DNA of 64,000 nt from Escherichia coli. GTDB taxonomy: Bacteria; Pseudomonadota; Gammaproteobacteria; Enterobacterales; Enterobacteriaceae. This document shows, piece after piece, positions 1,176 to 38,110 of the stretch. The position numbers and the translations under genes were made by a program. Under the pieces are notes generated by a model. That model saw only the letters and a program-made list of their open reading frames with translations. It was not told where the DNA came from and made no database searches. The DNA lies in the NCBI RefSeq assembly GCF_009931435.1, contig NZ_CP043414.1, one strand, 5' to 3'. Numbering within the stretch: the first letter of the stretch is position 1; each line of letters starts with the position of its first letter.

Positions 1176-1441
<266 letters not shown>

Positions 1442-2754
1442 ACGCTGGTAGTTGTACAACTGCTTTTTGCTCTCGGGCAGTAAATCAATATCCACCGGGG
1501 TAAATCCACGTTCCTGGAACCAGTGAATACTGCGCGTGGTCAGTACAAACAATTTGCTTAATCCGCTTTGCTTCGCCTGAGCGGCAATGCGCTCCAGCAA
1601 AACCTCGCCCCTTGATGAGCTGCGGTAATCCGGGTGAACGGCCACACAGGCCATTTCCCCAATCTTCTCTTCCGGGAACGGATAGAGTGCTGCGCAGGCA
1701 ATAGTCGTGTTATCGCGCTGAATAATAGTGAATTTGTCGATTTCCATCTCCAGTTGCTCGCGAGAACGGCGTACCAGAATACCTTGCTGCTCCAGTGGGC
1801 GAATCAACTCCAGAATGCCGCCAATATCGTTGATGGTTGCGCGACGAATTTGCTCGGCGCTTTCCATCACAATCTGCGTACCGATACCGTCACGTGAGAA
1901 CAACTCTTGCAACAGCGCGCCATCTTCCTGGTAACTAATTAAATGACAGCGACGTACGCCGCTGCGGCAGGCTTTCACCGCACCACGCAAAAAGCGCACC
2001 GTACCGGAGTTGTAATCGCCTTTCTCTTCCTGAGCTTCTACCCGCGCTTGTGCTTCGTTAGGGAAAAGCTCGGAGACAATATCGCCGTCGTCATTAGTGA
2101 CGCCCTGTGAAGAGCAAAAACCAATCATCTTTTCAGCTTTCAGTTTGATGGCCAGTTGAGTGGCGATCTCTTCCGAGGTCAGATTAAAGCTCTCGCCAGT
2201 GACTGAAACCGCGACCGGCCCCAGCAGCACTATCGCACCGCTGTCCAGTTGACGATGAATCGCATCTTCGTCAATCCGCCGGATACGCCCGCTATGGCAG
2301 TAATCCACACCGTCATCCACGCCCAGCGGCTGGGCAATAATAAAATTGCCACTGACGACGTTGATATGCGCGCCCTGCAGCGGCGTGTTATTGAGACTCA
2401 TCGACAGGCGAGCAGTAATGTCCAGTTGCAATGTTCCCGCAGCCTGCTTCACCAGTTCTAGTGTTTTGGCGTCGGTCACGCGTATATTTTTGTGATATAG
2501 CGGTTCGTGGTGATGCGCTGCCAGATTCGCATCGATCTGCGGGCGCGCTCCATAGACCACGACCAGACGGATGCCGAGGCTGTGCAGCAACCCGATATCA
2601 TTAACGATACTGGAGAAATTCTCATGCTCAATGGCTTCACCGCCGAGCATGATGACAAACGTTTTTCCCCGGTGGGTATTGATATAAGGAACCGAATGGC
2701 GGAATCCCTCGACCAACTCGGTTTTACGTTCCTTCATCACGGCACACCTCTTTG

Positions 2755-2792
2755 CATGATTATTCGTAATTATTGTATTTTTATTCTGTTTT
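2755..2792. promoter_or_regulatory. Putative ArgR operator (ARG boxes) in argA promoter
   Basis: AT-rich TGTATTTTTATTCTGT-type motif immediately upstream of argA start; from memory of ARG box consensus. Confidence 0.35.
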
Positions 2793-2970
2793 TTCACTGG
2801 GTGCAAGTGCAAATTTTACGCATGAGCAACTTTTTTATCAGTAATGCCGTGAATATAAAAAGAATGTTTACCGTTTATTAGATGACAGATTATGCGTCTT
2901 TCGCTAAAGTTTCCGGTCAAATTAGTCGTTTATTTGTTACACAGCTTAGATTTTTTTGCTCGGGAGATGC

Positions 2971-4224
2971 ATGTCGGGATCCAACACAGCAATCAGCCGT
3001 CGTCGTTTACTGCAAGGCGCGGGTGCCATGTGGCTATTGAGCGTAAGTCAGGTCAGTCTGGCTGCGGTCAGCCAGGTCGTGGCGGTGCGCGTCTGGCCTG
3101 CGTCCAGCTACACCCGTGTGACGGTAGAATCTAATCGTCAGCTGAAATATAAGCAGTTCGCGTTGAGTAACCCTGAACGCGTGGTGGTGGATATCGAAGA
3201 TGTAAACCTGAACTCAGTGCTCAAGGGGATGGCGGCACAAATTCGTGCTGATGACCCGTTCATCAAGTCGGCGCGCGTCGGGCAGTTTGACCCGCAAACC
3301 GTGCGGATGGTTTTTGAGTTAAAGCAAAACGTAAAACCGCAGCTGTTTGCCCTTGCTCCGGTCGCCGGGTTTAAAGAGCGTCTGGTGATGGATCTCTATC
3401 CTGCCAATGCTCAGGACATGCAGGACCCGCTGCTGGCGCTGCTGGAGGATTACAATAAAGGCGATCTCGAAAAGCAGGTGCCGCCTGCGCAGAGTGGCCC
3501 GCAGCCAGGCAAAGCAGGGCGCGATCGTCCGATTGTCATTATGCTTGACCCTGGCCATGGCGGCGAAGACTCCGGTGCGGTGGGGAAATACAAAACGCGT
3601 GAAAAAGACGTGGTATTGCAAATTGCCCGCCGTTTGCGCTCTCTGATTGAGAAAGAGGGCAATATGAAAGTTTACATGACCCGTAATGAAGACATCTTCA
3701 TTCCGTTGCAAGTGCGCGTAGCAAAAGCACAGAAACAGCGTGCTGACTTGTTTGTCTCTATTCATGCCGATGCCTTTACCAGTCGCCAGCCGAGCGGTTC
3801 ATCTGTGTTTGCGCTCTCTACCAAAGGTGCAACCAGTACCGCGGCAAAATATCTGGCGCAAACTCAGAACGCCTCGGACTTGATTGGTGGCGTGAGTAAG
3901 AGCGGCGACCGTTATGTCGACCATACTATGTTCGATATGGTGCAGTCGCTGACCATTGCCGACAGTCTGAAGTTTGGTAAAGCTGTGTTGAATAAGCTCG
4001 GTAAAATCAACAAGCTGCATAAAAATCAGGTTGAACAAGCCGGGTTTGCCGTGCTGAAAGCGCCTGATATACCCTCCATTTTGGTCGAAACGGCGTTTAT
4101 CAGTAACGTTGAGGAAGAACGTAAACTGAAAACGGCAACCTTCCAGCAGGAAGTTGCGGAATCAATCCTCGCAGGAATAAAAGCGTATTTTGCCGATGGG
4201 GCGACGCTGGCGAGAAGGGGATAA
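2971..4224 (+). CDS. amiC: N-acetylmuramoyl-L-alanine amidase AmiC (Tat signal SRRRLLQG)
   Basis: Tat motif, amidase_3 domain, 417 aa from Met at 2971; synteny with argA. Confidence 0.9.
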
Positions 4225-4394
4225 TGTTTTTATTTATTCAATGAATTTATATTTCGTTGAATAGATAATATTTACCTGAATATTAGACGTTGGTTTTGTG
4301 ACTGATGTCGAATATTTGAATGTCGGCTTGAAAAATAAGCCGACCATCTCTTTAATTAAGCACAATTCCGTGTAATGTATATGCATTAGTTAAT

Positions 4395-4470
4395 CATCTT
4401 GTAACTGTTAAATCAGGCAAGGCAATGTTTGAAGTAATTATTACTTCTGACGTGCCTTGCCTTTTTTTTT
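4395..4470 (+). promoter_or_regulatory. RAT-like element overlapping a rho-independent terminator (stem AGGCAAGGCA/TGCCTTGCCT 4415-4462, then T9) in leader of antiterminator-PTS operon
   Basis: Perfect 10-bp inverted repeat followed by 9 T; upstream GTAACTG..CAGGCAA resembles bgl RAT; sits directly 5' of a BglG-family gene. Confidence 0.5.
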
Positions 4471-4481
4471 GGAGCTATGGA

Positions 4482-5306
4482 ATGATCATCGAAAAAGTCA
4501 TGAACAATAATTGTGTACAGGCATCGATGAATGGACAGGAGGTTATCATTTCTGGGCCTGGCGTCGGTTACAACAAAAAATATGGAATGTCGGTCCCTGA
4601 GCATCCGGCTAACCGGATTTTTTATGTCAGAAATGAACAAAAAAATAAACTCTACAAATTGATTGAACATGTGGATATTGAGTATGTTTTTGTTGCCGAA
4701 AAAATAGTGCAATATGCAGAGAACAATCTCGAAAAAAATCTCAATCCATCGCTACTATTGATTCTTGCTGATCACATTTCGAATGCAATATCCCGAGTCG
4801 CTTCAGGCATACAAATTAATAATGTTTTCCTTGATGAAATCAAAGCGTTGTACAAAGCAGAGTATGCGATAAGTCGCGATGCATTAACTATCATTAATGA
4901 GCAATTTAGCGTTCAACTTCCTGATGATGAGATTGGTTTTATAGCATTGCATATTTTAAATAATTATGAAAATTCAGTTGATTATGAATCAGTACGGATT
5001 ATTGAGTTGTCGCAAATAATCACGGGGCTTATTGAAGTTGTTTATAACAGAAAGGTGGACAGAAGTTCATTTAATTATTCCAGGTTCATGATACACCTTA
5101 AATATTTTTCAAGTCGCGTATTATGCAATGAAAAAATAAAACAGAAAGATATTGGTGATCTCTATGAACAGTTTCTTGAGAAAGACATTCTGTTACAGCG
5201 CGCAATTCATGAAATTGAAAGGTATTTGTACGCCACTTTTAAATATGAATTGATTTTGGAAGAAAAACTATATCTCTCTATTCGCACCAAAGTATTAATG
5301 GACTAA
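4482..5306 (+). CDS. BglG/LicT-family transcription antiterminator (CAT RNA-binding domain + 2 PRDs)
   Basis: N-terminal MIIEKVMNNNCVQA.. CAT-like, PRD-like IALHI motif; start moved to ATG 4482 with GGAG RBS because ORF-track start 4425 lies inside the terminator loop. Confidence 0.75.
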   Translation: MIIEKVMNNNCVQASMNGQEVIISGPGVGYNKKYGMSVPEHPANRIFYVRNEQKNKLYKLIEHVDIEYVFVAEKIVQYAENNLEKNLNPSLLLILADHISNAISRVASGIQINNVFLDEIKALYKAEYAISRDALTIINEQFSVQLPDDEIGFIALHILNNYENSVDYESVRIIELSQIITGLIEVVYNRKVDRSSFNYSRFMIHLKYFSSRVLCNEKIKQKDIGDLYEQFLEKDILLQRAIHEIERYLYATFKYELILEEKLYLSIRTKVLMD

Positions 5307-5337
5307 TTATATATAACATTTATATGAGATAACCCGC

Positions 5338-6918
5338 ATGAAACAAAAGAAAGCCTGGAGTTTTTTTCAGAGCCTGGGAAAGGCATTTATGTATCCCATC
5401 GCTCTGCTAAGTGTATGTGGCATGATGTTAGGGCTAGGAAGTGGTTTAGCCAGCGATGATATGGCAAAATTAATTCCACTACTGGCTATTCCCGTAATTA
5501 AAACCATTCTTGATTTTATTGTTAGCCTTGGTTTGTTTGCCTTTGTCAATTTACCTGTATTGTTTGCGATAGCTATACCTCTGGGGTTATTAAAAGAGAA
5601 AGAGGATAAAGCCTATGGCGCTTTTTCTGGCTTAATTGGTTTCATGGCGATGCATCTGGGAACGAACTTTTATCTTAAACAACATGACTTATTGGTCGCT
5701 GCTGATCAAATGTCGACACATGGGCAAACCATTATTCTGGGAATCCAGTCCTACAATACCAGTGTGTTGGGTGGGATTATAGCAGGATTATTAGTCGCCA
5801 GTATGTATAAAAAGATCGTTAACTTACGTATTCCTGAATCATTAGGATTTTATAGTGGCCCACGCCTGGTGCCTATTATTACACTGATTGTGATGAGTGG
5901 ATTTGGTCTGATCATCCCTTTTATCTGGCCGCCATTTTTCAATCTTTTCATGCTCATTGGCCACTGGATTTCAACTTCCGGTCCTGTTGGCTATTTTTTC
6001 TATGCAGTCGCCGAACGCGTGACGATACCTTTTGGTTTAAATCACCTGGTGACGTCAGTTTTCCGCTTTACCCCCATCGGCGGATCGGCAGTGATCGGCG
6101 GCGAAGAGTATTATGGCACCCTGAACATGTTTATGGCGTACGTCAAAGAGAATGCGGTCATTCCGCTGGATTTGGCGGGGAAAATGGAACAGGGCAAACT
6201 GATGATTCAGTATGGTCTGGCTGGTGCCGCGCTGGCGATGTATCGCACTGCTCATGCTCAAAACAGAAAAGCTATCAAAGCATTGCTTATTTCCGGGGTG
6301 CTTACAGTCATTATTGGCGGCGTCAGCGAACCGATTGAGTTTCTGTTCTTATTTGTCAGTCCACTGCTGTTTGTCTTCCATGCCTTTATGAATGGATTCG
6401 CCAACATGGTCTTGCCATATATGGGCGTGAAGATGGGATTTACTGGCGATCTGATTCAATTTATTAGCTTTGGCGTATTGCGTGGCACAAGAACAGGTTG
6501 GCCAATAGCGGTGTGTGTCGAAGTGGCCTATTTCTTTATTTATTACTTTGTGTTCCGTTGGACTATTCTCAAATTTAACCTGATGACGGTAGGCCGTGAA
6601 GAGTCCAGTCCTGTCACGCTGAACGCTCATGAGGATACGGCTATAGCGGATATCCCAACGCTTGATAAATCAGAGCTGCAAGCAGCGGAGCAGATGGTTA
6701 AGGCACTTGGTGGTAAAGAGAATATTAAATCCCTGGATAATTGCGTAACTCGTTTACGTTTAACAATCGCAGATATGGGATTGATTGACGAGGCAGCAAT
6801 AAAAAGAGCTGGCGGAATTGCGGTTGTTAAACTTGATCAAAATACCCTACAAGTCATTATCGGTACTAAAGTCATCGCCTTGCGTCGGGATATGGATAAC
6901 TACATGGGGATATGCTGA
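5338..6918 (+). CDS. PTS EIICB component, glucose/maltose (MalX/PtsG) family; no EIIA domain
   Basis: Multi-TM EIIC region plus C-terminal EIIB with NCVTRLRL phosphorylation-site motif. Confidence 0.85.
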   Translation: MKQKKAWSFFQSLGKAFMYPIALLSVCGMMLGLGSGLASDDMAKLIPLLAIPVIKTILDFIVSLGLFAFVNLPVLFAIAIPLGLLKEKEDKAYGAFSGLIGFMAMHLGTNFYLKQHDLLVAADQMSTHGQTIILGIQSYNTSVLGGIIAGLLVASMYKKIVNLRIPESLGFYSGPRLVPIITLIVMSGFGLIIPFIWPPFFNLFMLIGHWISTSGPVGYFFYAVAERVTIPFGLNHLVTSVFRFTPIGGSAVIGGEEYYGTLNMFMAYVKENAVIPLDLAGKMEQGKLMIQYGLAGAALAMYRTAHAQNRKAIKALLISGVLTVIIGGVSEPIEFLFLFVSPLLFVFHAFMNGFANMVLPYMGVKMGFTGDLIQFISFGVLRGTRTGWPIAVCVEVAYFFIYYFVFRWTILKFNLMTVGREESSPVTLNAHEDTAIADIPTLDKSELQAAEQMVKALGGKENIKSLDNCVTRLRLTIADMGLIDEAAIKRAGGIAVVKLDQNTLQVIIGTKVIALRRDMDNYMGIC

Positions 6919-8093
6919 TGGATGTTTTTAATACTCCTATTTCCCGCAAAGGAACATATTGTACCCAATGGGACTTTTGCGAGGACAGATTTGGTGTAAA
7001 AGATGTATTACCATTCTCTATTTCAGATATGGATCTTCCGATACCGGAAGCTATCATCAGGGCATTAAAAAAACGTCTGGAACACCCGATTTTAGGGTAC
7101 AGCCGTTGGCAGCATGATGACTATCTGAATGCGATAGTCAATTGGTATCATCAACAATATAAAACTGAAATCAAACCAGAATGGATCACCTATAGCCCAA
7201 GCGTGATGTACTCCATTGCTAAAGCAATAGAGTTATTGACATCGCATGGTGATAATATTCTCGTTTTTACACCTGTCTATAATGCATTTTTTGATATAAT
7301 TAAACATAGCGAGAGAAATATTCTGACAGCCTCTTTGATTATAAAAAATGAGGGGGGCTACGCTATCAATTGGCAAGATTTTGATCTTAAGATTCAAAGC
7401 GCAAAGATGGTGTTATTATGTAATCCTCATAACCCGACAGGAACCGTCTGGTCGGAAGAAGATCTGCATAAAATCGCTGCAAGCTGTGCAAGACATAATG
7501 TCTGGTTATGTTCAGATGAAATTCACAGTGATTTTGTTTTTAATCGTAGCTTTACATCTGCGCTTAAAATAAAAAAAGAAAAAGTAGTGGTGTTTAATTC
7601 GATATCGAAGACATTTAATGTTCCTGCGCTAACAGGATCGTATATGATTTCAACTGACGATAATTTTAATCATGAGTTCAGAACGATATCAAGATATCGC
7701 GATTTTGTAAACTCCCCATCCGTACTGAATATAATTGCAACTATTATTGCCTATAACGAATGTGAGGGATGGTTAACGTCATTAAAGGCACATATTGCCT
7801 CTAACATTCAATTCACCCAGCAGTATCTGAACGAAAATACTCCAGAATTGATCGTAAGGCCTGCTGATGGTTGCTATTTTTCGTGGATAGATTGCTCTGC
7901 TATTGGTTATCCCTTTGATGAATTCTACAGTCGATTAATTCATGAAGGCAAAGTGGGCATTATGGCGGGGAATGTCTATGGAACGGAGGGGGAGGGCTAC
8001 CTTCGTCTGAACCTGGCCTGCGGTCGAGAAAAATTATATATGGGGCTTACGCGTCTTGCGAGTGTAATTAAAAATATTAATCAAGGAAAATAA
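6912..8093 (+). CDS. PLP-dependent C-S lyase / aminotransferase, MalY/PatB-like
   Basis: GTYCTQWDF..PFSISDMD..GYSRW and SISKTFN (PLP-Lys) motifs similar to E. coli MalY from memory; alternative start ATG 6918 overlaps PTS stop (TGATG). Confidence 0.8.
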   Translation: MLMDVFNTPISRKGTYCTQWDFCEDRFGVKDVLPFSISDMDLPIPEAIIRALKKRLEHPILGYSRWQHDDYLNAIVNWYHQQYKTEIKPEWITYSPSVMYSIAKAIELLTSHGDNILVFTPVYNAFFDIIKHSERNILTASLIIKNEGGYAINWQDFDLKIQSAKMVLLCNPHNPTGTVWSEEDLHKIAASCARHNVWLCSDEIHSDFVFNRSFTSALKIKKEKVVVFNSISKTFNVPALTGSYMISTDDNFNHEFRTISRYRDFVNSPSVLNIIATIIAYNECEGWLTSLKAHIASNIQFTQQYLNENTPELIVRPADGCYFSWIDCSAIGYPFDEFYSRLIHEGKVGIMAGNVYGTEGEGYLRLNLACGREKLYMGLTRLASVIKNINQGK

Positions 8094-8095
8094 AA

Positions 8096-8692
8096 ATGAA
8101 CAGCACGGATCTTATCCATCTCATTAAACATTTTATGCGTAACGAACATAAAGCAGTTGAAGAAGTTATTGATTCCCCCCTTTCGGAGGTCGCAAATTTA
8201 ATTAAAGTATTACAGTCTTGTCAGGGGAAAGTTGTTTTTATTGGTGTCGGTAAGTCCGGTATTATTGCCCGAAAACTCGCCGCAACATTTGCCAGCACTG
8301 GAACTCCCTCGTTTTTTGTTCACGGTACTGAAGCCGTACACGGCGATCTTGGGATGGTGGCGAAAGATGATGTTGTTATTCTTATTTCAAACAGTGGTGA
8401 GACGACAGAAATCCTGGCAACACTACCTAGTCTGAAAAAAATGGGTAATTATTTGATCTCCTTTACCCGCAGTCATCGCTCATCGCTTGCGATAAGTTGT
8501 GATTTATCCGTTGAAATTCCCGTAAAAAGTGAGGCGGATAATTTAGGTTTAGCGCCGTCATGCTCATCAACAGTCGTTCTGGTTGTTGGTGATGCGGTGG
8601 CGCTTGCGCTCTCCGAATTGAAAAAGTTTACTCGTGCTGATTTCGGCTTATATCATCCAGGAGGTGCGCTCGGTATTAAAGCAAACTCATAA
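8096..8692 (+). CDS. SIS-domain sugar-phosphate isomerase, KdsD/GutQ-like arabinose-5-phosphate isomerase lacking CBS domains
   Basis: GVGKSGIIARKLAATFASTGTPSFFVHGTEAVHGDLGM..HPGGALG closely resembles KdsD SIS domain; protein ends right after SIS domain (198 aa). Confidence 0.8.
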   Translation: MNSTDLIHLIKHFMRNEHKAVEEVIDSPLSEVANLIKVLQSCQGKVVFIGVGKSGIIARKLAATFASTGTPSFFVHGTEAVHGDLGMVAKDDVVILISNSGETTEILATLPSLKKMGNYLISFTRSHRSSLAISCDLSVEIPVKSEADNLGLAPSCSSTVVLVVGDAVALALSELKKFTRADFGLYHPGGALGIKANS

Positions 8693-8753
8693 TTTTAGAA
8701 TATAAAACAGTAACCGGTCACGCCATCTTTTGGGGTGGCGTTCATTGATGTGA

Positions 8754-9710
8754 GTGTCAGCTATGAAAAACGTTCTGGTCACCGTTCCCAGCTTTTCAGC
8801 GCGTTGTGTTTCTGCCAGCAAGCTGCTAAGAGAAAATCATTTTAACCTTATTATCAAGAATAATGTGGAGCATCTGGTTAAATCAGAATCCACAGTATTA
8901 CGAGAATCTATTTGCGCAGTCATTGCCGGAAAAGATTGTTATCAAGCGGATACGTTATCGCGACTACCAGGAGTGAAAATAATATCGAGATTCGGGACAG
9001 GGATTGATAATATTGATCTTCATACGGCTCGACAATCAGGTATTGTGGTCAATAATGCTGTTGGGATTAATTCAAATGCAGTCGCGGAATTTATCATTGG
9101 TCTTATTTTTGCGAGCATGAGAAATATCCCCGGTAGCTATCATGCGATGCAAAATGGTTATTGGGGCGAGTCGCATGGCTGCGAGTTACAAGGTAAACGT
9201 ATTGGCCTGCTTGGCTACGGCAATATTGGCAAAACACTGGCGAAAAGGTTATCTGGTTTTGATGTTGAGCTTTTAGCTTTTGACAAACAACCCGATTTCC
9301 AGGCCGCAGGCAAAGATGGAGTTCAGTTCGTATCAATTGAAGATATCTTTATGCAGTCTCATGTCATCATCGTTCTTTTGCCATTTTCTCCGGAGCTGGA
9401 GAACTTCATTAGTCATAAATATTTGTCGATGATGCGCAATGGTGCTCTTATCATCAACGCCGCAAGGGGAAAGTTGCTGGATGAGGGTGCTTTACTTCAG
9501 GTAATTGAAGAACGAAATGTTTTTGCAGCGCTGGATGTGTTTAGCTCTGAACCGCTAGCGCAATTTAGCCCATTGCTACATGCCAGGAATATCATTACAA
9601 CGCCGCATATTGCGGCCGCCACCGTTGAGTCATACCAGCAAACCGGGATATACGTTGCCAGGTCGATAATAGATTTCTTTGCAGGAAGGGAGATAAAAAA
9701 CGTGCTGTGA
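8754..9710 (+). CDS. D-isomer-specific 2-hydroxyacid dehydrogenase family protein (NAD-binding)
   Basis: GLLGYGNIGKTLAKRL Rossmann motif and overall family layout. Confidence 0.8.
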   Translation: MSAMKNVLVTVPSFSARCVSASKLLRENHFNLIIKNNVEHLVKSESTVLRESICAVIAGKDCYQADTLSRLPGVKIISRFGTGIDNIDLHTARQSGIVVNNAVGINSNAVAEFIIGLIFASMRNIPGSYHAMQNGYWGESHGCELQGKRIGLLGYGNIGKTLAKRLSGFDVELLAFDKQPDFQAAGKDGVQFVSIEDIFMQSHVIIVLLPFSPELENFISHKYLSMMRNGALIINAARGKLLDEGALLQVIEERNVFAALDVFSSEPLAQFSPLLHARNIITTPHIAAATVESYQQTGIYVARSIIDFFAGREIKNVL

Positions 9711-9736
9711 GTTCAGCTAAGGAAGATTTCAGGTAC

Positions 9737-9771
9737 AAAAAAACCGCAATTTGTGAAACACATTGCGGTTT
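9737..9771 (-). terminator. Rho-independent terminator of tRNA-fMet operon (possibly bidirectional)
   Basis: AACCGCAAT/ATTGCGGTT stem, followed by T-run on minus strand, directly 3' of last tRNA. Confidence 0.5.
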
Positions 9772-9788
9772 ATCAGCATCATAAGTGT

Positions 9789-9865
<77 letters not shown>

Positions 9866-9898
9866 TCACCGTACTGCTTTACTTCATCAAATTTTGAT

Positions 9899-9975
<77 letters not shown>

Positions 9976-10008
9976 TCACCGTACTGCTTTACTTCATCAA
10001 ATTTTAAT

Positions 10009-10085
<77 letters not shown>

Positions 10086-10293
10086 TCCGTGGATGCGCAC
10101 TATACTCCGCTCGCGTTTTCATGCAACCTTTTTTTTACCCAGATCACGGATTTGGTATGATTTTGAGCAAAAACAAATCACTAAAGCCTGTTTTTTGTGC
10201 AAAATTTGCGTCAGGGAGAGGCTGCTCATTTCATTAAACGCAGCGGTTTGTTATCTTCATTGCGCCTTATTTTTTAAACTGAAGAAGAGAACA

Positions 10294-11391
10294 ATGAAAG
10301 GACGTTGGGTAAAGTACCTTCTTATGGGCACGGTTGTGGCAATGCTTGCCGCCTGCTCTTCCAAACCAACCGATCGCGGACAGCAATATAAAGACGGGAA
10401 ATTTACCCAGCCTTTCTCTCTGGTAAACCAGCCAGATGCCGTTGGCGCGCCAATTAACGCCGGTGATTTTGCCGAGCAAATTAACCATATCCGTACTTCG
10501 TCACCGCGTCTGTATGGCAACCAGAGTAATGTTTATAATGCGGTGCAGGAGTGGCTACGCGCAGGCGGTGATACCCGCAATATGCGTCAGTTCGGCATTG
10601 ACGCCTGGCAGATGGAAGGTGCCGACAACTATGGCAACGTGCAGTTTACGGGCTATTACACGCCTGTCATTCAGGCGCGCCATACCCGTCAGGGCGAGTT
10701 CCAGTATCCTATTTACCGTATGCCGCCAAAACGTGGTCGTCTGCCGTCTCGTGCGGAGATCTACGCGGGAGCATTGAGCGATAAATACATCCTCGCTTAC
10801 AGCAACTCTCTGATGGATAACTTCATTATGGATGTGCAGGGTAGCGGGTATATCGATTTTGGTGATGGCAGTCCGCTTAACTTCTTCAGCTATGCCGGAA
10901 AGAATGGTCATGCCTATCGCAGTATTGGTAAGGTGCTGATTGACCGTGGCGAAGTGAAAAAAGAAGATATGTCGATGCAGGCGATTCGTCACTGGGGTGA
11001 AACACACAGTGAAGCCGAGGTTCGCGAGCTGCTGGAACAGAACCCGTCTTTCGTCTTCTTTAAACCGCAATCTTTTGCTCCGGTGAAAGGGGCAAGTGCG
11101 GTGCCGCTGGTTGGTCGCGCTTCAGTTGCGTCCGATCGTTCCATTATCCCGCCTGGTACAACCTTACTGGCAGAAGTGCCGCTGCTGGATAATAACGGCA
11201 AATTTAACGGTCAGTACGAACTGCGGCTGATGGTGGCGCTGGATGTCGGTGGTGCAATCAAAGGCCAACACTTCGATATTTATCAAGGTATCGGGCCGGA
11301 AGCCGGACACCGCGCAGGTTGGTACAACCACTATGGACGTGTTTGGGTGCTGAAAACCGCCCCGGGCGCAGGTAACGTCTTTAGCGGCTGA
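10294..11391 (+). CDS. mltA: Membrane-bound lytic murein transglycosylase A (lipoprotein)
   Basis: MKGRWVKYLLMGTVVAMLAACSS lipobox; 365 aa; ORF-track N-terminal extension overlaps tRNA genes and is rejected. Confidence 0.9.
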   Translation: MKGRWVKYLLMGTVVAMLAACSSKPTDRGQQYKDGKFTQPFSLVNQPDAVGAPINAGDFAEQINHIRTSSPRLYGNQSNVYNAVQEWLRAGGDTRNMRQFGIDAWQMEGADNYGNVQFTGYYTPVIQARHTRQGEFQYPIYRMPPKRGRLPSRAEIYAGALSDKYILAYSNSLMDNFIMDVQGSGYIDFGDGSPLNFFSYAGKNGHAYRSIGKVLIDRGEVKKEDMSMQAIRHWGETHSEAEVRELLEQNPSFVFFKPQSFAPVKGASAVPLVGRASVASDRSIIPPGTTLLAEVPLLDNNGKFNGQYELRLMVALDVGGAIKGQHFDIYQGIGPEAGHRAGWYNHYGRVWVLKTAPGAGNVFSG

Positions 11392-11467
11392 TGTGTTATT
11401 CTGTATACCGTTTTGACGGATACGACAGGGTGAGGGATAACCTCGCCCTTTTTAATTCTGAGGTGCT

Positions 11468-12274
11468 ATGTCTGTGGTAATTAGTGATGCATGGCGTCAG
11501 CGTTTTGGTGGCACTGCGCGTCTGTATGGTGAAAAAGCGTTGCAACTGTTTGCTGATGCGCATATTTGTGTGGTCGGTATCGGTGGCGTTGGTTCCTGGG
11601 CGGCGGAAGCGCTGGCGCGCACGGGTATTGGCGCAATCACACTTATCGATATGGATGATGTGTGCGTCACTAATACCAATCGGCAAATTCACGCGCTGCG
11701 AGATAACGTCGGGCTGGCCAAAGCGGAAGTCATGGCCGAACGTATTCGCCAGATTAACCCGGAGTGCCGTGTAACGGTGGTGGATGACTTCGTGACGCCG
11801 GATAACGTAGCGCAATATATGAGTGCCGGTTATTCGTACGTGATTGATGCCATTGATAGTGTGCGACCCAAAGCGGCGCTGATTGCTTATTGTCGGCGCA
11901 ACAAAATCCCTCTGGTCACGACTGGTGGTGCTGGTGGGCAGATTGATCCGACGCAGATTCAGGTTACCGATCTGGCGAAAACGATTCAGGACCCGCTGGC
12001 GGCGAAGTTGCGCGAGCGCCTGAAAAGCGATTTTGGCGTAGTGAAAAACAGCAAAGGTAAGCTCGGCGTGGATTGCGTGTTCTCTACCGAAGCGCTGGTG
12101 TACCCGCAGTCAGACGGTACGGTGTGCGCGATGAAAGCCACGGCAGAAGGGCCGAAGCGGATGGATTGTGCATCTGGATTTGGTGCGGCGACGATGGTGA
12201 CCGCCACCTTTGGTTTTGTTGCGGTTTCTCATGCGTTGAAGAAGATGATGGCGAAAGCGGCGCGTCAGGGGTAA
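11468..12274 (+). CDS. tcdA: tRNA threonylcarbamoyladenosine dehydratase (ThiF/MoeB-like)
   Basis: VVGIGGVGSWAAEALARTGIG Rossmann motif; 268 aa; synteny with csdAE. Confidence 0.85.
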   Translation: MSVVISDAWRQRFGGTARLYGEKALQLFADAHICVVGIGGVGSWAAEALARTGIGAITLIDMDDVCVTNTNRQIHALRDNVGLAKAEVMAERIRQINPECRVTVVDDFVTPDNVAQYMSAGYSYVIDAIDSVRPKAALIAYCRRNKIPLVTTGGAGGQIDPTQIQVTDLAKTIQDPLAAKLRERLKSDFGVVKNSKGKLGVDCVFSTEALVYPQSDGTVCAMKATAEGPKRMDCASGFGAATMVTATFGFVAVSHALKKMMAKAARQG

Positions 12275-12280
12275 ACAATC

Positions 12281-12316
12281 AGGTCGGATGCGACGCGAAC
12301 GTCTTATCCGACCTGG
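12281..12316. repeat. REP-like palindrome between convergent tcdA and csdE
   Basis: AGGTCGGAT...ATCCGACCT inverted repeat. Confidence 0.4.
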
Positions 12317-12324
12317 TTTTGTGC

Positions 12325-12768
12325 TTAACCCTGCTTTGCCGCCGCGATAATCGCCTCGCTTAACGCATTCAACCCCTGACTGCGAGAGGCGCTAAGTTGC
12401 GCACGCAATCCCAGCTCATCAAACAATGCCAGCGGCGACTGTGCTTGCAATTCGGCGGCGGTTTTCCCCTCAACGGCAGTCAACAACACCGCCAGCAGGC
12501 CGCGCACAATGCGTCCTTCGCTGTCGCCAAAGAAATGCATCGTGCCGTTTTCAGCCACGGTATATCCCAGCCAGACGCGGTTTTCGCATCCGGCGATCTC
12601 TTTAGCCTGCGCTTTTAACTCGTCTGGCAAAGCTGGAAGCTGTTTCCCCAACATAATTAGCTGACGATATTTGTCTTCCCATTGAGTCAACGGCGCGAAA
12701 GTTTCGTGTAACGTCTTTACGGTAACGGTTGTGCCGAACGGATGTCCGGCGTATTGCGGGTTCGTCAT
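12325..12768 (-). CDS. csdE: Sulfur acceptor protein CsdE (SufE-like)
   Basis: 147 aa SufE-family ORF immediately downstream of csdA. Confidence 0.85.
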
Positions 12769-14408: not shown

Positions 14409-14614
14409 AAAAAAAAGCACCGCAATTAGGCGGTGCTACATTAATCACTATGGACAGACAGGGTAAATGTACAGGAAGTGAAAAAAGGTAGCTTTGCTAC
14501 CATGGTCTGAATCGCAGACCAATTGCAAACACAACAACACAACATCACAACCGTAAGCCAAAAGTTCACCAGAACACGCATTCCGATAAAACTTTTCGTT
14601 CCGGCTCAGGAAGT
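14409..14614 (-). ncRNA. gcvB: GcvB small regulatory RNA
   Basis: Reverse complement matches GcvB from memory (ACTTCCTGAGCCGGAACGAAAAGTTTTATCGG ... GT-rich region ... GCGGTGCTTTTTTTT terminator); divergent from gcvA. Confidence 0.85.
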
Positions 14615-21726: not shown

Positions 21727-21808
21727 CAGGATTCCTCATCTCGCTTTATTGGCGCTCTGCTAAGGCGGAGAAAGGAAACCACCGAAGCAGTAGTATTGGT
21801 CATTATTT

Positions 21809-21824
21809 GCTAACTCGAGTTAGC
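21809..21824. promoter_or_regulatory. 16-bp perfect palindrome GCTAACTCGAGTTAGC (copy 1), candidate operator
   Basis: Exact self-complementary 16-mer with central CG, in fucI/ABC-operon divergent intergenic region. Confidence 0.35.
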
Positions 21825-21868
21825 TTAGGTTTGTAGGCTTTTTATGCACAACTTTTTTGTTGTTGAAA

Positions 21869-21884
21869 TGTGAGGGGCTTCACG
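21869..21884. promoter_or_regulatory. CRP-like site TGTGAGGGGCTTCACG
   Basis: 9/10 match to TGTGA-N6-TCACA half-sites. Confidence 0.3.
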
Positions 21885-22047
21885 AGAAGTGGTTAAAATA
21901 CGATCTCTGTCAAATTATTATTTAGCGGGATAAAAATAAATTTTACGTATAATCAAATGGTTATTAGATTTTAATGGTTATGCATCACAGTTTTAACTCA
22001 AATGATTTGGCTAATTTGTATACCTAAAATAGCTTTAAAAGGCGATC

Positions 22048-22063
22048 GCTAACTCGAGTTAGC
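22048..22063. promoter_or_regulatory. 16-bp perfect palindrome GCTAACTCGAGTTAGC (copy 2), candidate operator
   Basis: Identical to copy 1, 239 bp away, ~130 bp upstream of ABC ATPase start. Confidence 0.35.
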
Positions 22064-22195
22064 AAAATGCGAAGAATAGATTGATACGATGAATATTTAT
22101 TCAAAGGTTATTCGTATCACAGTGGAGATGGCTTTAGTAGCGACGTTTATGCCGTACTTCACATTTTCAGTTTCTGATTATTGAGGAAAGCTGCA

Positions 22196-23695
22196 ATGTC
22201 CGAAACATTTTTGCAAATGAAGCATATCACCAAACGCTTTCCTGGAGTGTTGGCGCTTAATGACGTGCAATTTACCCTACGCCGGGGCGAGGTTCATGCA
22301 TTATTAGGTGAAAATGGTGCAGGAAAATCTACATTAATGAAAATTTTGTCGGGGGTTTATCAACCTGATGAAGGCGAAATAATTTTTGAAGATAAATTAG
22401 TCTCATTTTCTGATCCGTTAAGTGCGCAAAACGTAGGTATTACTATTATTCACCAGGAATTTAATTTATTTCCCGAGCTTACAGTAGAAGAAAATATTTT
22501 TATCGGCAGGGAGTTTTGTAAAAAAAATCGCTGGCGTCTGGATGAGAAACAGCAACGCAAGGCGACGATTGAAATTTTGCAAAAATTAAATTTGGCGATC
22601 AAACCAGATACTCTGGTTGCCGACCTTACGGTAGCTCAACAACAGATGGTAGAAATTGCCAAGGCCATTTCGGTTAACGCCAGGATTCTCATTATGGATG
22701 AACCTACTGCGGCGTTAACAGAAACTGAAATTGAAAGCTTATTTCGCGTCACCCGGTTATTGAAAGAACAGGGGACCGGCATTGTGTATATATCCCACCG
22801 TCTGGAAGAGTTGGCGCTAATTGCCGACCGCGCGACTGTAATGCGTGATGGTCAGTACATCAGCACAGTAGATTATGAGTGCGTAAAAATCAGCGATCTG
22901 ATTGCCATGATGGTTGGTCGCGATTTAGGGAATATCTATCCCCGCCGCGAGGCCATACAGCAGCGGATGCCGGTTCTGGAGGTCAACGGACTGACGCGCA
23001 AAGGCGTACTGAACGATATTAATTTTACGCTTTATCGTGGCGAGATCCTCGGCTTTGCCGGACTGATGGGGGCAGGTCGTACTGAACTTGCGCGTGCGAT
23101 TTTTGGTGCGGACTCCATTGACAGCGGAACGCTAAAGTTAAATGGTAAGGAAACCGTTATTAAAGATATTTCGGATGCTATTCAGCAGGGAATTAGTTAC
23201 CTGACGGAAGACCGAAAAAAAGAAGGGTTGGCACTGAATTTATCTGTTGAACGAAATATTATGTTAGGAAATTACCCTGAGTATTCCGATCGTTTTGGGA
23301 ATGTCGATTCGCGTCGTTGCCAACAAACCAGTGAGGAACAGGTAAAAGCGTTAAGGATTAAAACGCCAAATCTTGAACAGGCTGCATTAAATCTAAGTGG
23401 AGGAAATCAGCAGAAAATTATAATTGCACGTTGGGTGTGTAAAGATACTGATATTTTAATCTTCGATGAACCCACTCGCGGCATTGATGTTGGCGCCAAA
23501 CTGGAAATCTATGAGTTAATGAATCGCCTGGTGGCAAAAGGGAAATCAATCATCATGATCTCCTCTGAATTGCCGGAGGTGTTAGGAATGTGCGACCGTA
23601 TTTTAGTGATGCGCAGTGGTCGAATTACTGGCGAACTTAGCGCAAATGAAGCGACACAAGAAAAAATCATGCAATACGCGACGTTAGAGGATTAA
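22196..23695 (+). CDS. Sugar ABC transporter ATP-binding protein, tandem ABC domains (RbsA/MglA-like)
   Basis: Two Walker A (GENGAGKST; GLMGAGRTE) and two signature motifs (LSGGNQQK); ATG 22196 with GAGGA RBS. Confidence 0.85.
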   Translation: MSETFLQMKHITKRFPGVLALNDVQFTLRRGEVHALLGENGAGKSTLMKILSGVYQPDEGEIIFEDKLVSFSDPLSAQNVGITIIHQEFNLFPELTVEENIFIGREFCKKNRWRLDEKQQRKATIEILQKLNLAIKPDTLVADLTVAQQQMVEIAKAISVNARILIMDEPTAALTETEIESLFRVTRLLKEQGTGIVYISHRLEELALIADRATVMRDGQYISTVDYECVKISDLIAMMVGRDLGNIYPRREAIQQRMPVLEVNGLTRKGVLNDINFTLYRGEILGFAGLMGAGRTELARAIFGADSIDSGTLKLNGKETVIKDISDAIQQGISYLTEDRKKEGLALNLSVERNIMLGNYPEYSDRFGNVDSRRCQQTSEEQVKALRIKTPNLEQAALNLSGGNQQKIIIARWVCKDTDILIFDEPTRGIDVGAKLEIYELMNRLVAKGKSIIMISSELPEVLGMCDRILVMRSGRITGELSANEATQEKIMQYATLED

Positions 23696-23698
23696 ATT

Positions 23699-24682
23699 AT
23701 GACTATCTCTGTAACCTCTCCAGACAGCAATAATAAGAAAATAAAGATAAATAAAGAACTTTTGATGCGCCTTGCGCCTCTTTTTAGCTTAATTATATTA
23801 GTGCTGTTTTTTAGTTTCAGCTCTCCCTTTTTCTTTAATACCGAAAATATCATGACGATTGCTCTGCAAACGTCGGTTATCGGCATTATGGCCATTGGGG
23901 TAACTTTCGTCATTATTACCGCGGGCATCGATCTTTCATTGGGTTCCGTGGTGGCTTTTTCTGGTGTCGCCGTGGGGATTTGCGCCACACTGGGCCTGCC
24001 GCTGCCAGTGTGTATTATTGCCGGTGTTTTAGCCGGTGGAATGTGCGGCTATGTGAATGGTTTGTTGGTCACTAAAATGACTATTCCACCGTTTATCGCT
24101 ACCTTGGGCCTGATGATGTCCGTCAGAGGTATCAATATGGTGATGACCGACGGGCGCGCCATCTATTTTGCCGATTACCCGATGTTCAAAACGCTCGCTC
24201 AGGGACGCTTGTTTGATGTGCTGCCTTATCCTGTTTTCTACCTGGTCATTGTGGCGCTTGTCGGCGCTTACATCCTGAAGAAAACGGTTATTGGTCGCTA
24301 TGTCTATGCCGTAGGCAGTAATGAAGTTGCTGCTCATCTTTCTGGTATTAAAGTTCAGCGCGTGAAAATTTTCGTCTATGCCTTCTGTGGTTTATTAACC
24401 GGGATTGCGGGTGTCATTCTCGCTTCTCGTCTCAACTCCGGACAACCGACGGTGGGTGTGGGTTATGAGCTGGAAGCTATTGCTGCGGTAGTGATCGGCG
24501 GAACCAGCTTAATGGGCGGTATTGGCACTATTGGCGGCACAATCATTGGCGCTTTCATTATGAGTGTACTGAAAAATGGCCTCAATTTAATGGGGGTCTC
24601 TCAGTTCTGGCAAATGGTCGCGATGGGCGTAGTTGTGGTCGCTGCCGTTTACCTCGATACATTACGCAAAAAGATTCGTTGA
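23699..24682 (+). CDS. Sugar ABC transporter permease (RbsC/AraH family)
   Basis: ~10 TM segments, family layout. Confidence 0.85.
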   Translation: MTISVTSPDSNNKKIKINKELLMRLAPLFSLIILVLFFSFSSPFFFNTENIMTIALQTSVIGIMAIGVTFVIITAGIDLSLGSVVAFSGVAVGICATLGLPLPVCIIAGVLAGGMCGYVNGLLVTKMTIPPFIATLGLMMSVRGINMVMTDGRAIYFADYPMFKTLAQGRLFDVLPYPVFYLVIVALVGAYILKKTVIGRYVYAVGSNEVAAHLSGIKVQRVKIFVYAFCGLLTGIAGVILASRLNSGQPTVGVGYELEAIAAVVIGGTSLMGGIGTIGGTIIGAFIMSVLKNGLNLMGVSQFWQMVAMGVVVVAAVYLDTLRKKIR

Positions 24683-24755
24683 CTTAGGCTCCCTGTTTTA
24701 TCGGGAAACAACTGCCCTGACGTTAAGGGTGATTCACTCAGAACGGAGTACAACA

Positions 24756-25706
24756 ATGAAAACCAGGCATTTTATCTATGCGTTATCTCTGCTGGCTTGC
24801 GTAAGTTCCAGCGCACTGGCGAAGGATTTAAATCTTCCGGTTGTTAGTAAAGGTTTCCAACATGAATTCTGGCAAACCGTAAAAATGGGGACTGAAGCTG
24901 CGGCTAAAGAGTTGGGGGATAAAACCAGCTATGTTGGCCCGGCTGATGAAACGCAAATAGCCGAGCAAATTCAGTTAGTCGAAAATGCGATGGCGCAGAA
25001 ACCGAATGGCTTGCTTCTGGCAGCCCTCGACGCGAATGCGCTCGCCCCACTGGTAGAAACGGCAAATTCACGCGGTATCAAAGTGGTGACCTTTGATTCA
25101 GGCATCAATTCAGACATTCCGGTGAGTTTTGTCGCCACCAATAACCGTAAAGCAGGTGCTCAGGCAGCTGATGCCTTAGCTGCGCAGGTAAATAATAAAG
25201 GGAAAGTTGGGATTATCGCGCACGTTGCAGGAACATCTTCCGCTATTGAACGCTCGGAAGGCTTCATGGAGCGTATGAAAGAAAAATATCCTGACATTAA
25301 AGTCTTACCCGTTCAGTACAGCGATGGTGACCCGCAAAAAGCGATGGATAAAACTATCGATATGATTCAGGCCAATCCCGATCTTGCTGGGATCTATGGC
25401 ACCAATGAAGGTTCAACGCTCGGGGTGGCGAATGCCATTGATAGCCAGAATCTGAAAGGTAAGGTGAAGGTCATTGGTTTTGATAGTACGGAAGCGATTA
25501 TTAACTTCCTGAAGAACGGGGTCATTCAGGGCTTTGTTGTTCAGGATGCATACCAGATTGGCTATCAAGGGATCAAAACGTTGAACGCGGCCCTTTCGGG
25601 GCAAGCCGTTGAAAAAGAGATCGATATTCCCGTGAAATTTGTTAATGCCGAGAATATTAACACGCCAGAAATCGACAAACTCCTGCACCCATTCGGTAAG
25701 AAATAA
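24756..25706 (+). CDS. Periplasmic sugar-binding protein (RbsB-like, type I PBP) with signal peptide
   Basis: MKTRHFIYALSLLACVSSSALA signal peptide; GGAG RBS; ORF-track upstream extension overlaps permease and is rejected. Confidence 0.85.
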   Translation: MKTRHFIYALSLLACVSSSALAKDLNLPVVSKGFQHEFWQTVKMGTEAAAKELGDKTSYVGPADETQIAEQIQLVENAMAQKPNGLLLAALDANALAPLVETANSRGIKVVTFDSGINSDIPVSFVATNNRKAGAQAADALAAQVNNKGKVGIIAHVAGTSSAIERSEGFMERMKEKYPDIKVLPVQYSDGDPQKAMDKTIDMIQANPDLAGIYGTNEGSTLGVANAIDSQNLKGKVKVIGFDSTEAIINFLKNGVIQGFVVQDAYQIGYQGIKTLNAALSGQAVEKEIDIPVKFVNAENINTPEIDKLLHPFGKK

Positions 25707-25759
25707 AAAAATTGGGGATGAATTCTCATCCCCGTTATCTCCAGCGTCAGGGAGGCTTT

Positions 25760-27340
25760 ATGCACAACGGTTATTTTCTCGGTGTCGATGTCGGATCGGC
25801 CAGTGTCAGGGCAGGCGTTTACAGTGCCAGTGGCCACAGGCTGGCATTCGCTACTGCGCCCGTCTCCCAGTTTCGCCCTGGCGGCGAGCGTGTCGAACAG
25901 TCTTCGGCAGAGATCTGGCAACAAGTTTGTAAAACGGTGAAAGAGGCGACAGCTTTGGCAGGCATCCCCATTTCCGCAATTCGCTCACTGGGTTTTGACG
26001 CTACCTGCTCGCTGGTTGTTCTTGATGAACAAGGCCAGGGTTTAGCGGTTTCGTCCGGTGGATCTGCGAATCACGACATTATTATGTGGATGGATCATCG
26101 TGCAACTGTCGAGACGGCGCAGATTAACGCAACGAAGGATCCCGTATTGCGCTACGTTGGCGGCGAAGTGAGCGTCGAGATGGAGTTACCAAAGTTACGT
26201 TGGTTGAAGACGCATCTACCGCAAACCTGGCAGGCCGCTCATCGCTTTTTCGATCTGGCGGATTTTCTGGTCTGGAAAGCAACAGGGCGAGACGTCGCGG
26301 GATTGTGCACGCTAACGTGTAAATGGAATTATCTGGCTCATGAACAACGCTTTAGCCATAGCTTACTGGAATCGGTAGACCTGACCGACATGCTCGAAAG
26401 AATTCCCGCCGAAATTCTTCCGCCTGGTGCTGCCGTGGGAACTTTAACTGCCACAGCTGCTGAAGAATTAGGATTAACGACCAATGTTATCGTGGCCAGT
26501 GGTTTGATTGATGCCCATGCCGGTGGCATGGCGCTGGCTGGCGCGCAGCCATCAGGAACGCTGGCATTGATAAGCGGAACGTCGAATTGCCACATGTTGT
26601 GCAGTGAAAAAGAAATATTCACCCCTGGCGTCTGGGGGCCATACTGGTCGGCCATGTTGCCAAATTACTGGCTAACTGAAGGCGGGCAAAGCGCCGCAGG
26701 GGCGCTGGTGGAGTGGACGCTTCAGGAGTCCGGGGCAAGCGCAAATCTTTTTAACAAGGCGCAGCAACGCGGGTGTCATCCGATTCAACTGATTAATGAA
26801 TGGGTAGCCGCCCTGGAAGCTAACGAGTCAGAACCCACACGAAATTTACATGTGCTTGCCGATCATCACGGCAACCGTTCGCCACGAGCGCGGCCCGATG
26901 CCAGAGGCAGTGTTTATGGCTTAACACTGGAGCGTGGTGAAAATCAGCTCGCGCGGCTTTATCTTGCGACTTTACAGGCAATAGCCTTTGGCACCAGACA
27001 TATTATTGAAACTCTGCGGGAAAATGGGCATACCATTACCCGATTAACATTATGTGGTGGTGCAACGCACAACCCTTTATGGCTACGCGAATATGCAGAC
27101 GTGACAGGTTGCGATATCCACCTGATGCAAGAAGAAGATGCCGTTACGTTGGGCGCAGCAATTAGCGGCGCTGTTGCCAGCGGAGCATGGGGGGATTTTA
27201 CATCTGCGTGTAAAGCAATGGTTGAAGCCGGAGAGGTTATTCAGGTAAATCCACAACGCCGTGAATTTTTAGAGCGTAAATACCGGGTTTACCTGACGCT
27301 TTGGGAGCAACAACAGGCGGTTAACCAACTGATGCAATAA
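25760..27340 (+). CDS. FGGY-family carbohydrate (pentulose-type) kinase
   Basis: GVDVGSASVRAGV N-terminal FGGY motif; ~526 aa; GGAGG RBS. Confidence 0.8.
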   Translation: MHNGYFLGVDVGSASVRAGVYSASGHRLAFATAPVSQFRPGGERVEQSSAEIWQQVCKTVKEATALAGIPISAIRSLGFDATCSLVVLDEQGQGLAVSSGGSANHDIIMWMDHRATVETAQINATKDPVLRYVGGEVSVEMELPKLRWLKTHLPQTWQAAHRFFDLADFLVWKATGRDVAGLCTLTCKWNYLAHEQRFSHSLLESVDLTDMLERIPAEILPPGAAVGTLTATAAEELGLTTNVIVASGLIDAHAGGMALAGAQPSGTLALISGTSNCHMLCSEKEIFTPGVWGPYWSAMLPNYWLTEGGQSAAGALVEWTLQESGASANLFNKAQQRGCHPIQLINEWVAALEANESEPTRNLHVLADHHGNRSPRARPDARGSVYGLTLERGENQLARLYLATLQAIAFGTRHIIETLRENGHTITRLTLCGGATHNPLWLREYADVTGCDIHLMQEEDAVTLGAAISGAVASGAWGDFTSACKAMVEAGEVIQVNPQRREFLERKYRVYLTLWEQQQAVNQLMQ

Positions 27341-27404
27341 GACAAAAGTTGAAAATACTTTTATGATTGTGATTTGACGTCTGGATGTTAACTGGGAAAT
27401 ACCT

Positions 27405-28403
27405 ATGGCTAAAACAGTAGAGCAGATAGCCAGCGACCTGAATTTATCGGTTACGACCGTGCGACTGGTGCTAAATGGAAAAGCGGAACAATATCGAATC
27501 AGCGTCAAAACCCAAACGCGTATCAATGAATATGTTGAACGCTATGGTTATATCATTAATCATTCCGCTCGCAGCCTTAAGCTTAACAAAACTGATACAT
27601 TAGGGTTGATTGTTCCCAACATATCCAACGTCTTTTTTGCTACGCTGGCAGAAAAACTCGAACAACGCTGTCGACGTTCCGGATATCAACTTACAATCAG
27701 TTGCACTTATGATGATGTTGACTATGAAAATAAATTGACGAAAGCATTTATCGCACGAAATGTAGATGGTCTTTTTATTGTTCCTTCGACGCTGGAAAAT
27801 CAGCAGCATCATTTACGCAAAATTCGTAAGCCAATGGTTTTACTCGATCGTGATTTTAAATATACCGATAACGCATTGGTAGAGAGTAATAATATTTCTG
27901 GCGGAGAAAAGCTGACGCAAAATATTCTTGAGGCCGGGCAGGCTCCAGTATGGTTTTTGCTGGGAGATGCCGGTTTGCCGAGTATCAGCGATCGTCTGAC
28001 AGGTTATTTGAATGCGTTGGCAAAAAAAGGGATTACCCATCGCGATTGGGTGCGGGAAGGTCCGGTAAATACTCCGGAAGGCGGCTATGTCATTATGGAA
28101 AAACTCATTGAAGAGCAGGGATGTCCGCAGGCATTTATCGCCTCGTCTTTACCTGTGCTTGAAGGCGCTGTCCGCGCGATTCGCGACCGTCTTGGCGCTG
28201 TACCGCCAGAAATCAATATTGGCACTTTCGATGAACATCCTATGCTGGGATTTCTCGCCAACAATGTCTGGTCAATGCAGCAGGATGAAAATGCCTGGGC
28301 AGAAAAAGCGTTCGAAATGATGTTAAGCGCGATCGAAGAAAGACCAGTAAAAAAAACAGTTAAAGTAGAAATGAAATTAATTAAGCGCATAAGAAAAAAA
28401 TAA
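27405..28403 (+). CDS. LacI-family transcriptional regulator
   Basis: N-terminal HTH (TVEQIASDLNLSVTTVRLVLNG) plus periplasmic-binding-like effector domain. Confidence 0.85.
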   Translation: MAKTVEQIASDLNLSVTTVRLVLNGKAEQYRISVKTQTRINEYVERYGYIINHSARSLKLNKTDTLGLIVPNISNVFFATLAEKLEQRCRRSGYQLTISCTYDDVDYENKLTKAFIARNVDGLFIVPSTLENQQHHLRKIRKPMVLLDRDFKYTDNALVESNNISGGEKLTQNILEAGQAPVWFLLGDAGLPSISDRLTGYLNALAKKGITHRDWVREGPVNTPEGGYVIMEKLIEEQGCPQAFIASSLPVLEGAVRAIRDRLGAVPPEINIGTFDEHPMLGFLANNVWSMQQDENAWAEKAFEMMLSAIEERPVKKTVKVEMKLIKRIRKK

Positions 28404-28535
28404 TAATCGCCAAAAGATATCAGGCTACTGAACAATGATATTCAGTGGCCTCCCCTTACTAAAAATAACCCCGTCTTCATTTGCGGTGCTGTTTTACGCA
28501 ACAAGGCGAGCTGAAACTGTATCTGGAGAATAGAA

Positions 28536-38067: not shown

Positions 38068-38110
38068 TCCTGCTATCCTTCGCGGCAGTTTTTCTTATTG
38101 AGGTTGCTTT

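Follow-up and report, generated by a model that had tools for sequence, protein, structure and literature searches.

Genomic setting and layout of the operon

Within the window, the 64,000-nucleotide stretch of Escherichia coli DNA analysed here, a 5.5-kb insert of five tightly packed co-directional genes lies between amiC and a cluster of tRNA genes, and its fourth gene encodes a stand-alone SIS domain. The insert is flanked on the left by recD, argA and amiC, and on the right by three tRNA-Met genes, mltA, tcdA, csdEA, gcvA and rlmM. GC content is 35–43% over positions 4000-9500, compared with ~53% in the flanks. The features of the insert and its border are as follows.

4397-4470, plus strand: operon leader, comprising a RAT-like sequence and an intrinsic terminator (from the sequence and the RNA fold)
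4482-5306, plus strand: BglG/LicT-family antiterminator, 274 aa (Pfam CAT_RBD and PRD; NCBIfam LicT, E 2e-67)
5338-6918, plus strand: PTS EIICB of the MalX-like glucose/maltose family, 526 aa (Pfam PTS_EIIC and PTS_EIIB)
6918-8093, plus strand: PatB/MalY-family PLP-dependent C-S lyase (TIGR04350 C_S_lyase_PatB, 366 bits against a cut-off of 340)
8096-8692, plus strand: stand-alone SIS gene, 198 aa, an intact ORF running from ATG at 8096 to TAA at 8690-8692
8763-9710, plus strand: D-isomer-specific 2-hydroxyacid dehydrogenase, the last gene of the operon (Pfam 2-Hacid_dh and 2-Hacid_dh_C)
9789-10085, minus strand: three tRNA-Met (CAU) genes (ARAGORN, Rfam), the right border of the low-GC insert

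The antiterminator gene, which has 825 nt in RefSeq for both CFT073 and strain 2017-02-2CC, is 96.6% identical to that of CFT073 at the nucleotide level, and its CFT073 ortholog is the PRD protein known as PafR. A start at 4425, given by the mechanical ORF list, was rejected: it falls within the hairpin of the leader, the match to the LicT profile begins only at residue 20 of that longer ORF, and the start annotated in RefSeq corresponds to 4482. The EIICB matches the NCBIfam model PTS-IIBC-malX with an E-value of 6e-161, under the cut-off of that model, and Pfam and NCBIfam detected no EIIA domain on the 526-aa permease. The C-S lyase has the aminotransferase class I/II fold (Pfam Aminotran_1_2) and the RefSeq name 'MalY/PatB family protein'. 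The dehydrogenase, whose start at 8763 is the one annotated in relatives, is PGDH-like, with catalytic and NAD domains only, and scores under the cut-offs of all NCBIfam equivalogs. The TGA stop of the EIICB gene overlaps the ATG of the C-S lyase gene by 1 nt, and a gap of 2 nt separates the stop of the lyase gene from the start of the SIS gene; by this spacing, the operon genes are translationally coupled. An AAGGAA Shine-Dalgarno sequence is located 7 nt upstream of the SIS start.

Gene order and flanks are as in CFT073, in which the operon lies near metV, between amiC and mltA. There, c3405-c3410 represent a maltose/glucose-type PTS gene set in PAI-CFT073-metV, common to UPEC strains (Bryant et al. 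2010). The two loci differ to the right of the operon: CFT073 has a type VI secretion cluster (locus coordinates 7916-12597) between the dehydrogenase gene and the tRNAs, whereas in the window the tRNAs follow the operon directly (9711-9788), which indicates that the five-gene operon can occur apart from the rest of PAI-metV. The three tRNA-Met genes are named metZWV in K-12.

Other features of the window

For the argA-amiC flank (1409-4224), identity is ~94–95% with 5241 of 5425 complete E. coli genomes and reaches 99% or more with only 18, and amiC differs from that of CFT073 at 86 positions, all of them synonymous. This identity profile and the divergence of amiC indicate an uncommon and divergent Escherichia lineage as the source of the window, with strains R32_14_1F (goat) and 2017-02-2CC as the nearest records.

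Between fucI and fucA, a 6.8-kb cassette (21739-28556) takes the place of the fucP permease gene and encodes a sugar ABC transporter (ATPase, permease and binding protein), an FGGY-family pentulose kinase and a LacI-family regulator; among 5426 complete E. coli genomes, 383 have this cassette. A toxin-antitoxin pair located after relA (50870-51453) is absent from the closely related strain 2017-02-2CC, and is, judging from its protein sequences, probably mazE-mazF. Two small RNAs were identified by Rfam with high scores, each in its usual neighbourhood.

14409-14614, minus strand: GcvB small RNA
37709-38068, plus strand: CsrB small RNA

Leader and predicted control of the operon

The RAT-like sequence TCTTGTAACTGTTAAATCAGGCAAGGCA at 4397-4424 overlaps the 5' arm of the leader terminator. 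This arm includes GGCAAGGCA at 4416-4424, which base-pairs with an arm containing GCCTTGCC at ~4452-4461; a T9 run (4462-4470) comes next. The hairpin folds at -30.3 kcal/mol (z = -5.05), and none of 200 shuffled sequences was as stable. The RAT-like call was made by eye against the BglG/LicT consensus; the TTGT-ACTG...CAGGCAA core of the leader presumably resembles BglG/LicT RAT sites. A promoter/terminator consensus scan of the operon gave no sites above shuffled sequence and missed the leader terminator. Together, the leader and the CAT-PRD protein predict substrate-dependent antitermination via the operon's own EIICB, with the PRD antiterminator, acting on the leader RAT/terminator, probably gating the operon in response to the substrate of its own PTS permease. 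We assume that pafR and pafP of CFT073 are the antiterminator and PTS genes of this operon. According to a review that summarises Baum et al. (2014), pafR, a regulator in the CFT073 metV island, and pafP matter in mouse urinary-tract infection.

A single SIS domain without a CBS pair

A Pfam search of the 198-aa product returned one SIS domain (residues 41-170, E 1e-25) and no CBS domain. The original prediction, made by eye from the letters and the translation, described a SIS-only relative of KdsD/GutQ that stops right after the HPGGALG segment, where KdsD continues into a CBS pair, and both parts of this description hold. The pairwise alignment with KdsD that it had proposed was run by BLASTP against the E. 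coli protein (a query sequence 100% identical to an annotated kdsD gene by tblastn), and gave 91 identities over 154 ungapped residues (59%, E 1e-57), pairing query residues 42-195 with KdsD residues 48-201. Beyond the aligned region there are 127 more residues in KdsD and three in the SIS protein, which ends 5 aa past HPGGALG.

The profile models gave the same picture. Residues 30-195 of the SIS protein correspond to positions 36-201 of the 328-position KdsD model (NCBIfam NF008141, E 4e-58), positions 1-152 of the 268-position KpsF/GutQ model (TIGR00393) were matched with an E-value of 2e-56, the N-terminal half only, and the GutQ model (NF008581) was likewise matched in its N-terminal half (E 7e-48). 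The scores are under the curated cut-offs for full-length proteins (197 against 505 bits for KdsD, 191.8 against 203.7 for KpsF/GutQ, and 163 against 481 for GutQ) because only the N-terminal half of each model is matched. The spacer between the SIS gene and the dehydrogenase gene measures 61-70 nt, and Pfam detected no CBS domain in the dehydrogenase, so no CBS pair could be encoded downstream. The HxlB model (TIGR03127) scored 50.8 bits against a cut-off of 160, and assignments to HxlB, GmhA, MurQ and GlmS-type proteins were rejected, with scores far under the cut-offs and much weaker fold matches.

Orthology with c3406 of CFT073

The SIS gene is the ortholog of E. coli CFT073 c3406, of which the protein, architecture, activity and structure have already been published. 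The SIS protein and the CFT073 protein (WP_001066223.1) are identical end to end at 192 of 198 residues (97%), the six substitutions being N3S, H15R, L18H, F32V, A104T and H128R, and the sequence of WP_001066223.1 is that of PDB 5UQI/5VHU. Accordingly, a PDB sequence search matched the 198-residue chain 5uqi/5vhu over its full length (E 9e-121); entry 5UQI, released on 2018-02-21, is titled "E. coli CFT073 c3406 in complex with A5P". The AF2 model of the SIS protein is compact, with a pLDDT of 95.2, and 5uqi was its best match by Foldseek (rmsd 0.8 A, TM 0.94/0.98). The protein is the subject of Mosberg et al. (2011, J Bacteriol 193:2981), which a citing paper summarises as dealing with the UPEC enzyme that converts Ru5P to A5P.

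At the nucleotide level, the SIS gene differs from that of CFT073 at 45 positions, a divergence of 7.5%, close to the 6.9% of the flanking amiC, where all differences are synonymous. The differences fall in 44 codons, 38 of them synonymous and six non-synonymous, a substitution pattern that points strongly to purifying selection on the SIS gene.

In the original work on c3406, the recombinant protein was reportedly purified and assayed, and API activity was present; unlike the other E. coli APIs, it is said to have no CBS domains. The operon is said to have been proposed to serve the uptake and use of a carbohydrate, and in mice deletion of c3406 reportedly caused no attenuation while deletion of c3405-c3410 did. 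The minimal, SIS-only API of the original prediction thus agrees with a published ortholog of 97% identity that has been crystallised with A5P (5UQI). A CBS-less API was correctly predicted by eye, although the fact that this protein had already been characterised was missed.

Active site and predicted catalytic activity

The active-site residues of KdsD, which we take from the study of structure 2xhz to be K59, H88, E111, E152 and H193, align with K53, H82, E105, E146 and H187 of the SIS protein. Across 26 aligned family members, H82, E105, E146 and H187 never vary, and K53 is retained in at least 90%. In the 2xhz chain, the Lys59 of wild-type KdsD is replaced by Ala, consistent with a test of this residue for a catalytic role. 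The columns of the 26-sequence alignment that are invariant or nearly so contain none of the six differences from c3406; T104 adjoins E105, in a column that is variable. The substrate-contacting motifs, namely GKSG, ATFASTGTPSFFVH, HGDLGM, ISNSGE, LGLAP(S/T) and HPGGALG, are nearly unchanged relative to KdsD. By analogy with KdsD, the sugar phosphate would bind where subunits meet, and proton transfer via an enediol intermediate would involve the Lys, His and Glu residues together with the His of the C-terminal HPGG motif.

We consider it highly probable (roughly 90%) that the SIS gene, as the c3406 ortholog, encodes a single-domain D-arabinose-5-phosphate/D-ribulose-5-phosphate aldose-ketose isomerase (EC 5.3.1.13). 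The basis for this assignment here is orthology, architecture, conserved residues, fold, operon structure and purifying selection; activity and A5P binding come from the literature and the PDB for the 97%-identical protein, and the physiological direction and the operon substrate are inferred.

Distribution and mobility of the operon

The SIS gene was detected in 1687 of 5426 complete E. coli genomes (31%), and most of the operon is present in 1686. Among the 1687 carriers, 1541 have the CFT073/UTI89/APEC O1/ST131-type allele, which is 90–95% identical to that of the window, and 95 match the window at 99% identity or more. Outside this species, Atlantibacter hermannii has the same operon at the same recD-argA-amiC...mltA locus. 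The operon lies at a different locus in Citrobacter, and also on a metagenomic contig, and in one Enterobacter it adjoins a fructose-PTS-type (fruBKA-like) gene set and is without the dehydrogenase. The antiterminator-EIICB-lyase-SIS core is therefore found together at no fewer than three different chromosomal sites in Escherichia/Atlantibacter, Citrobacter and Enterobacter. The varied loci and the absence of the dehydrogenase in that Enterobacter indicate a mobile cassette with a four-gene core, and the operon is horizontally acquired.

In A. hermannii GCA_009907385.1, no gene is called at locus 7606-9383, where the dehydrogenase and tRNAs are expected, and on a second A. hermannii contig the dehydrogenase is present; the gap could reflect gene decay or an annotation gap.

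In Firmicutes, stand-alone SIS homologues with 52–58% identity lie beside a DHDPS/NAL-family lyase and/or a PfkB kinase, together with a transporter of the TRAP, GAT-type PTS or MFS kind. These neighbourhoods are located as follows.

Fusibacter: 3241-9517
Lactiplantibacillus and Companilactobacillus: ~3000-7600
Mammaliicoccus lentus: 5354-9854

From their gene content, these neighbourhoods may serve to break down a KDO-like 3-deoxy acid or D-arabinose by way of A5P and then Ru5P, and such a route, if true, might explain the presence of API in Gram-positive bacteria.

Alternative explanations

It is improbable, in our estimation, that the physiological substrate is another phosphosugar supplied by the PTS permease and C-S lyase, with A5P/Ru5P isomerisation being an in vitro side activity. 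The idea draws on the composition of the operon: the MalX-like EIICB, the PatB lyase and the 2-hydroxyacid dehydrogenase give no evident route to A5P, and none of the five operon genes encodes an obvious enzyme for making A5P from a hexose phosphate, which leaves room for another phosphosugar as the in vivo substrate. Conservation of the four-gene core at three or more enterobacterial loci likewise implies a dedicated pathway. Moreover, the Listeria relative 3fxa, a stand-alone SIS protein too, reportedly isomerises glucose-6-phosphate and has no API activity, which would mean that architecture alone does not fix specificity. However, the SIS protein is 59% identical to KdsD with the substrate motifs nearly unchanged, and it is exactly in these motifs that the Listeria protein differs; the ortholog, furthermore, was crystallised with A5P.

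The original prediction had itself raised the possibility that the ORF is a truncated form of a longer, CBS-containing gene in relatives, that is, a pseudogene left when a full-length gene of the kdsD/gutQ/kpsF type lost its CBS domains. The scores under the NCBIfam full-length cut-offs, with half of each model unmatched, would be compatible with such an origin. Nonetheless, the relatives proved to be SIS-only proteins of ~200 aa. The best 120 matches among 5.8 billion proteins are all SIS-only and 110-218 aa long (190-218 aa when full-length, the shorter ones being fragments), with identities of 85% in Atlantibacter, 83% in Citrobacter, 60–65% in Enterobacter and 50–60% in many Firmicutes. 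None of the 26 aligned family members has a CBS match, and the length of 198 aa is shared by the window, CFT073 and Citrobacter. The excess of synonymous (38) over non-synonymous (6) codon changes, a good Shine-Dalgarno sequence with translational coupling, the compact and confident AF2 model and the crystallised ortholog are also at odds with decay. Homologue lengths, domain content and the synonymous/non-synonymous pattern together refute truncation, to which we give almost no weight.

A non-catalytic sugar-phosphate sensor, in the manner of a free RpiR/MurR/NanR-like SIS domain modulating the antiterminator or PTS, is scarcely credible, since the SIS domains of regulators (MurR, NanR, RccR) are found among the weaker Foldseek matches at 16–24% identity and rmsd 3–4 A, against 47–97% and 0.8–1.4 A for isomerases, and since all catalytic residues are kept in the SIS protein. 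Isomerase turnover, which would count against a mere sensor, is reported for the ortholog.

Proposed role of the isomerase and its operon

As an A5P/Ru5P isomerase, the SIS protein would most likely convert A5P to Ru5P and in this way connect a product of the operon's PTS sugar with the pentose-phosphate pathway, and it could also supply A5P for KDO synthesis. The original prediction already suggested that a sugar phosphate delivered by a PTS may be the source of A5P, and the gene content of the operon fits this idea.

What biological value remains is in the operon. It is reported to contribute to the urinary-tract fitness of CFT073, 31% of complete E. coli genomes have it, and other enterobacterial genera contain the same cassette. 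Because its four-gene core is intact at three chromosomal sites or more, it may encode an undescribed catabolic route. We tentatively propose, as a possibility that we regard as doubtful, that the PLP lyase cleaves a sugar conjugate, possibly of host origin, imported by the PTS, which is then channelled via A5P into the pentose-phosphate pathway, and that a second route exists in Firmicutes, leading from a KDO-like 3-deoxy acid to pyruvate and D-arabinose, and from the latter through A5P to Ru5P.

Comparison with known systems

HxlB (TIGR03127) shares with the window protein a single SIS domain and a similar size, and the structural relatives 1vim, 1jeo and 1m3s are 21–24% identical to it by Foldseek, with an rmsd of ~3 A. 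Closer in structure is Lmof2365_0531 of Listeria monocytogenes (PDB 3fxa), also a stand-alone SIS protein of ~200 aa (TM 0.92, rmsd 1.4 A), which is 35% identical in the alignment (30–31% by Foldseek). It has Thr in place of the KdsD K59 equivalent and the motifs GTSG, HGTLG, ISKGGN and MLATA, whereas the window protein has the KdsD-type GKSG and HGDLG instead of GTSG and HGTLG.

The single-domain API of Bacteroides fragilis (PDB 3etn), which was reportedly shown to be an API, is likewise a stand-alone SIS domain of ~200 aa. It is 36% identical to the window protein and keeps the Lys, His, Glu, Glu and His residues, but its C-terminal motif is HHGG where the window protein has HPGG, and its depositors linked it to capsule formation.

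The KdsD/GutQ/KpsF enzymes have in common with the window protein the catalytic SIS domain and the five active-site residues, and the fold of the latter superimposes on KdsD 2xhz with an rmsd of 1.3 A. They differ in having the tandem CBS pair (~125 aa) that the window protein is without, and in context, with their genes associated with LPS, capsule or glucitol and the window SIS gene belonging to a PTS operon of catabolic type. The window protein would work like the KdsD/GutQ/KpsF enzymes, minus their canonical two-module architecture. Its nearest known counterpart is c3406 of CFT073, which has the same length of 198 aa, the same SIS-only architecture, the same operon and the same amiC/metZWV locus.
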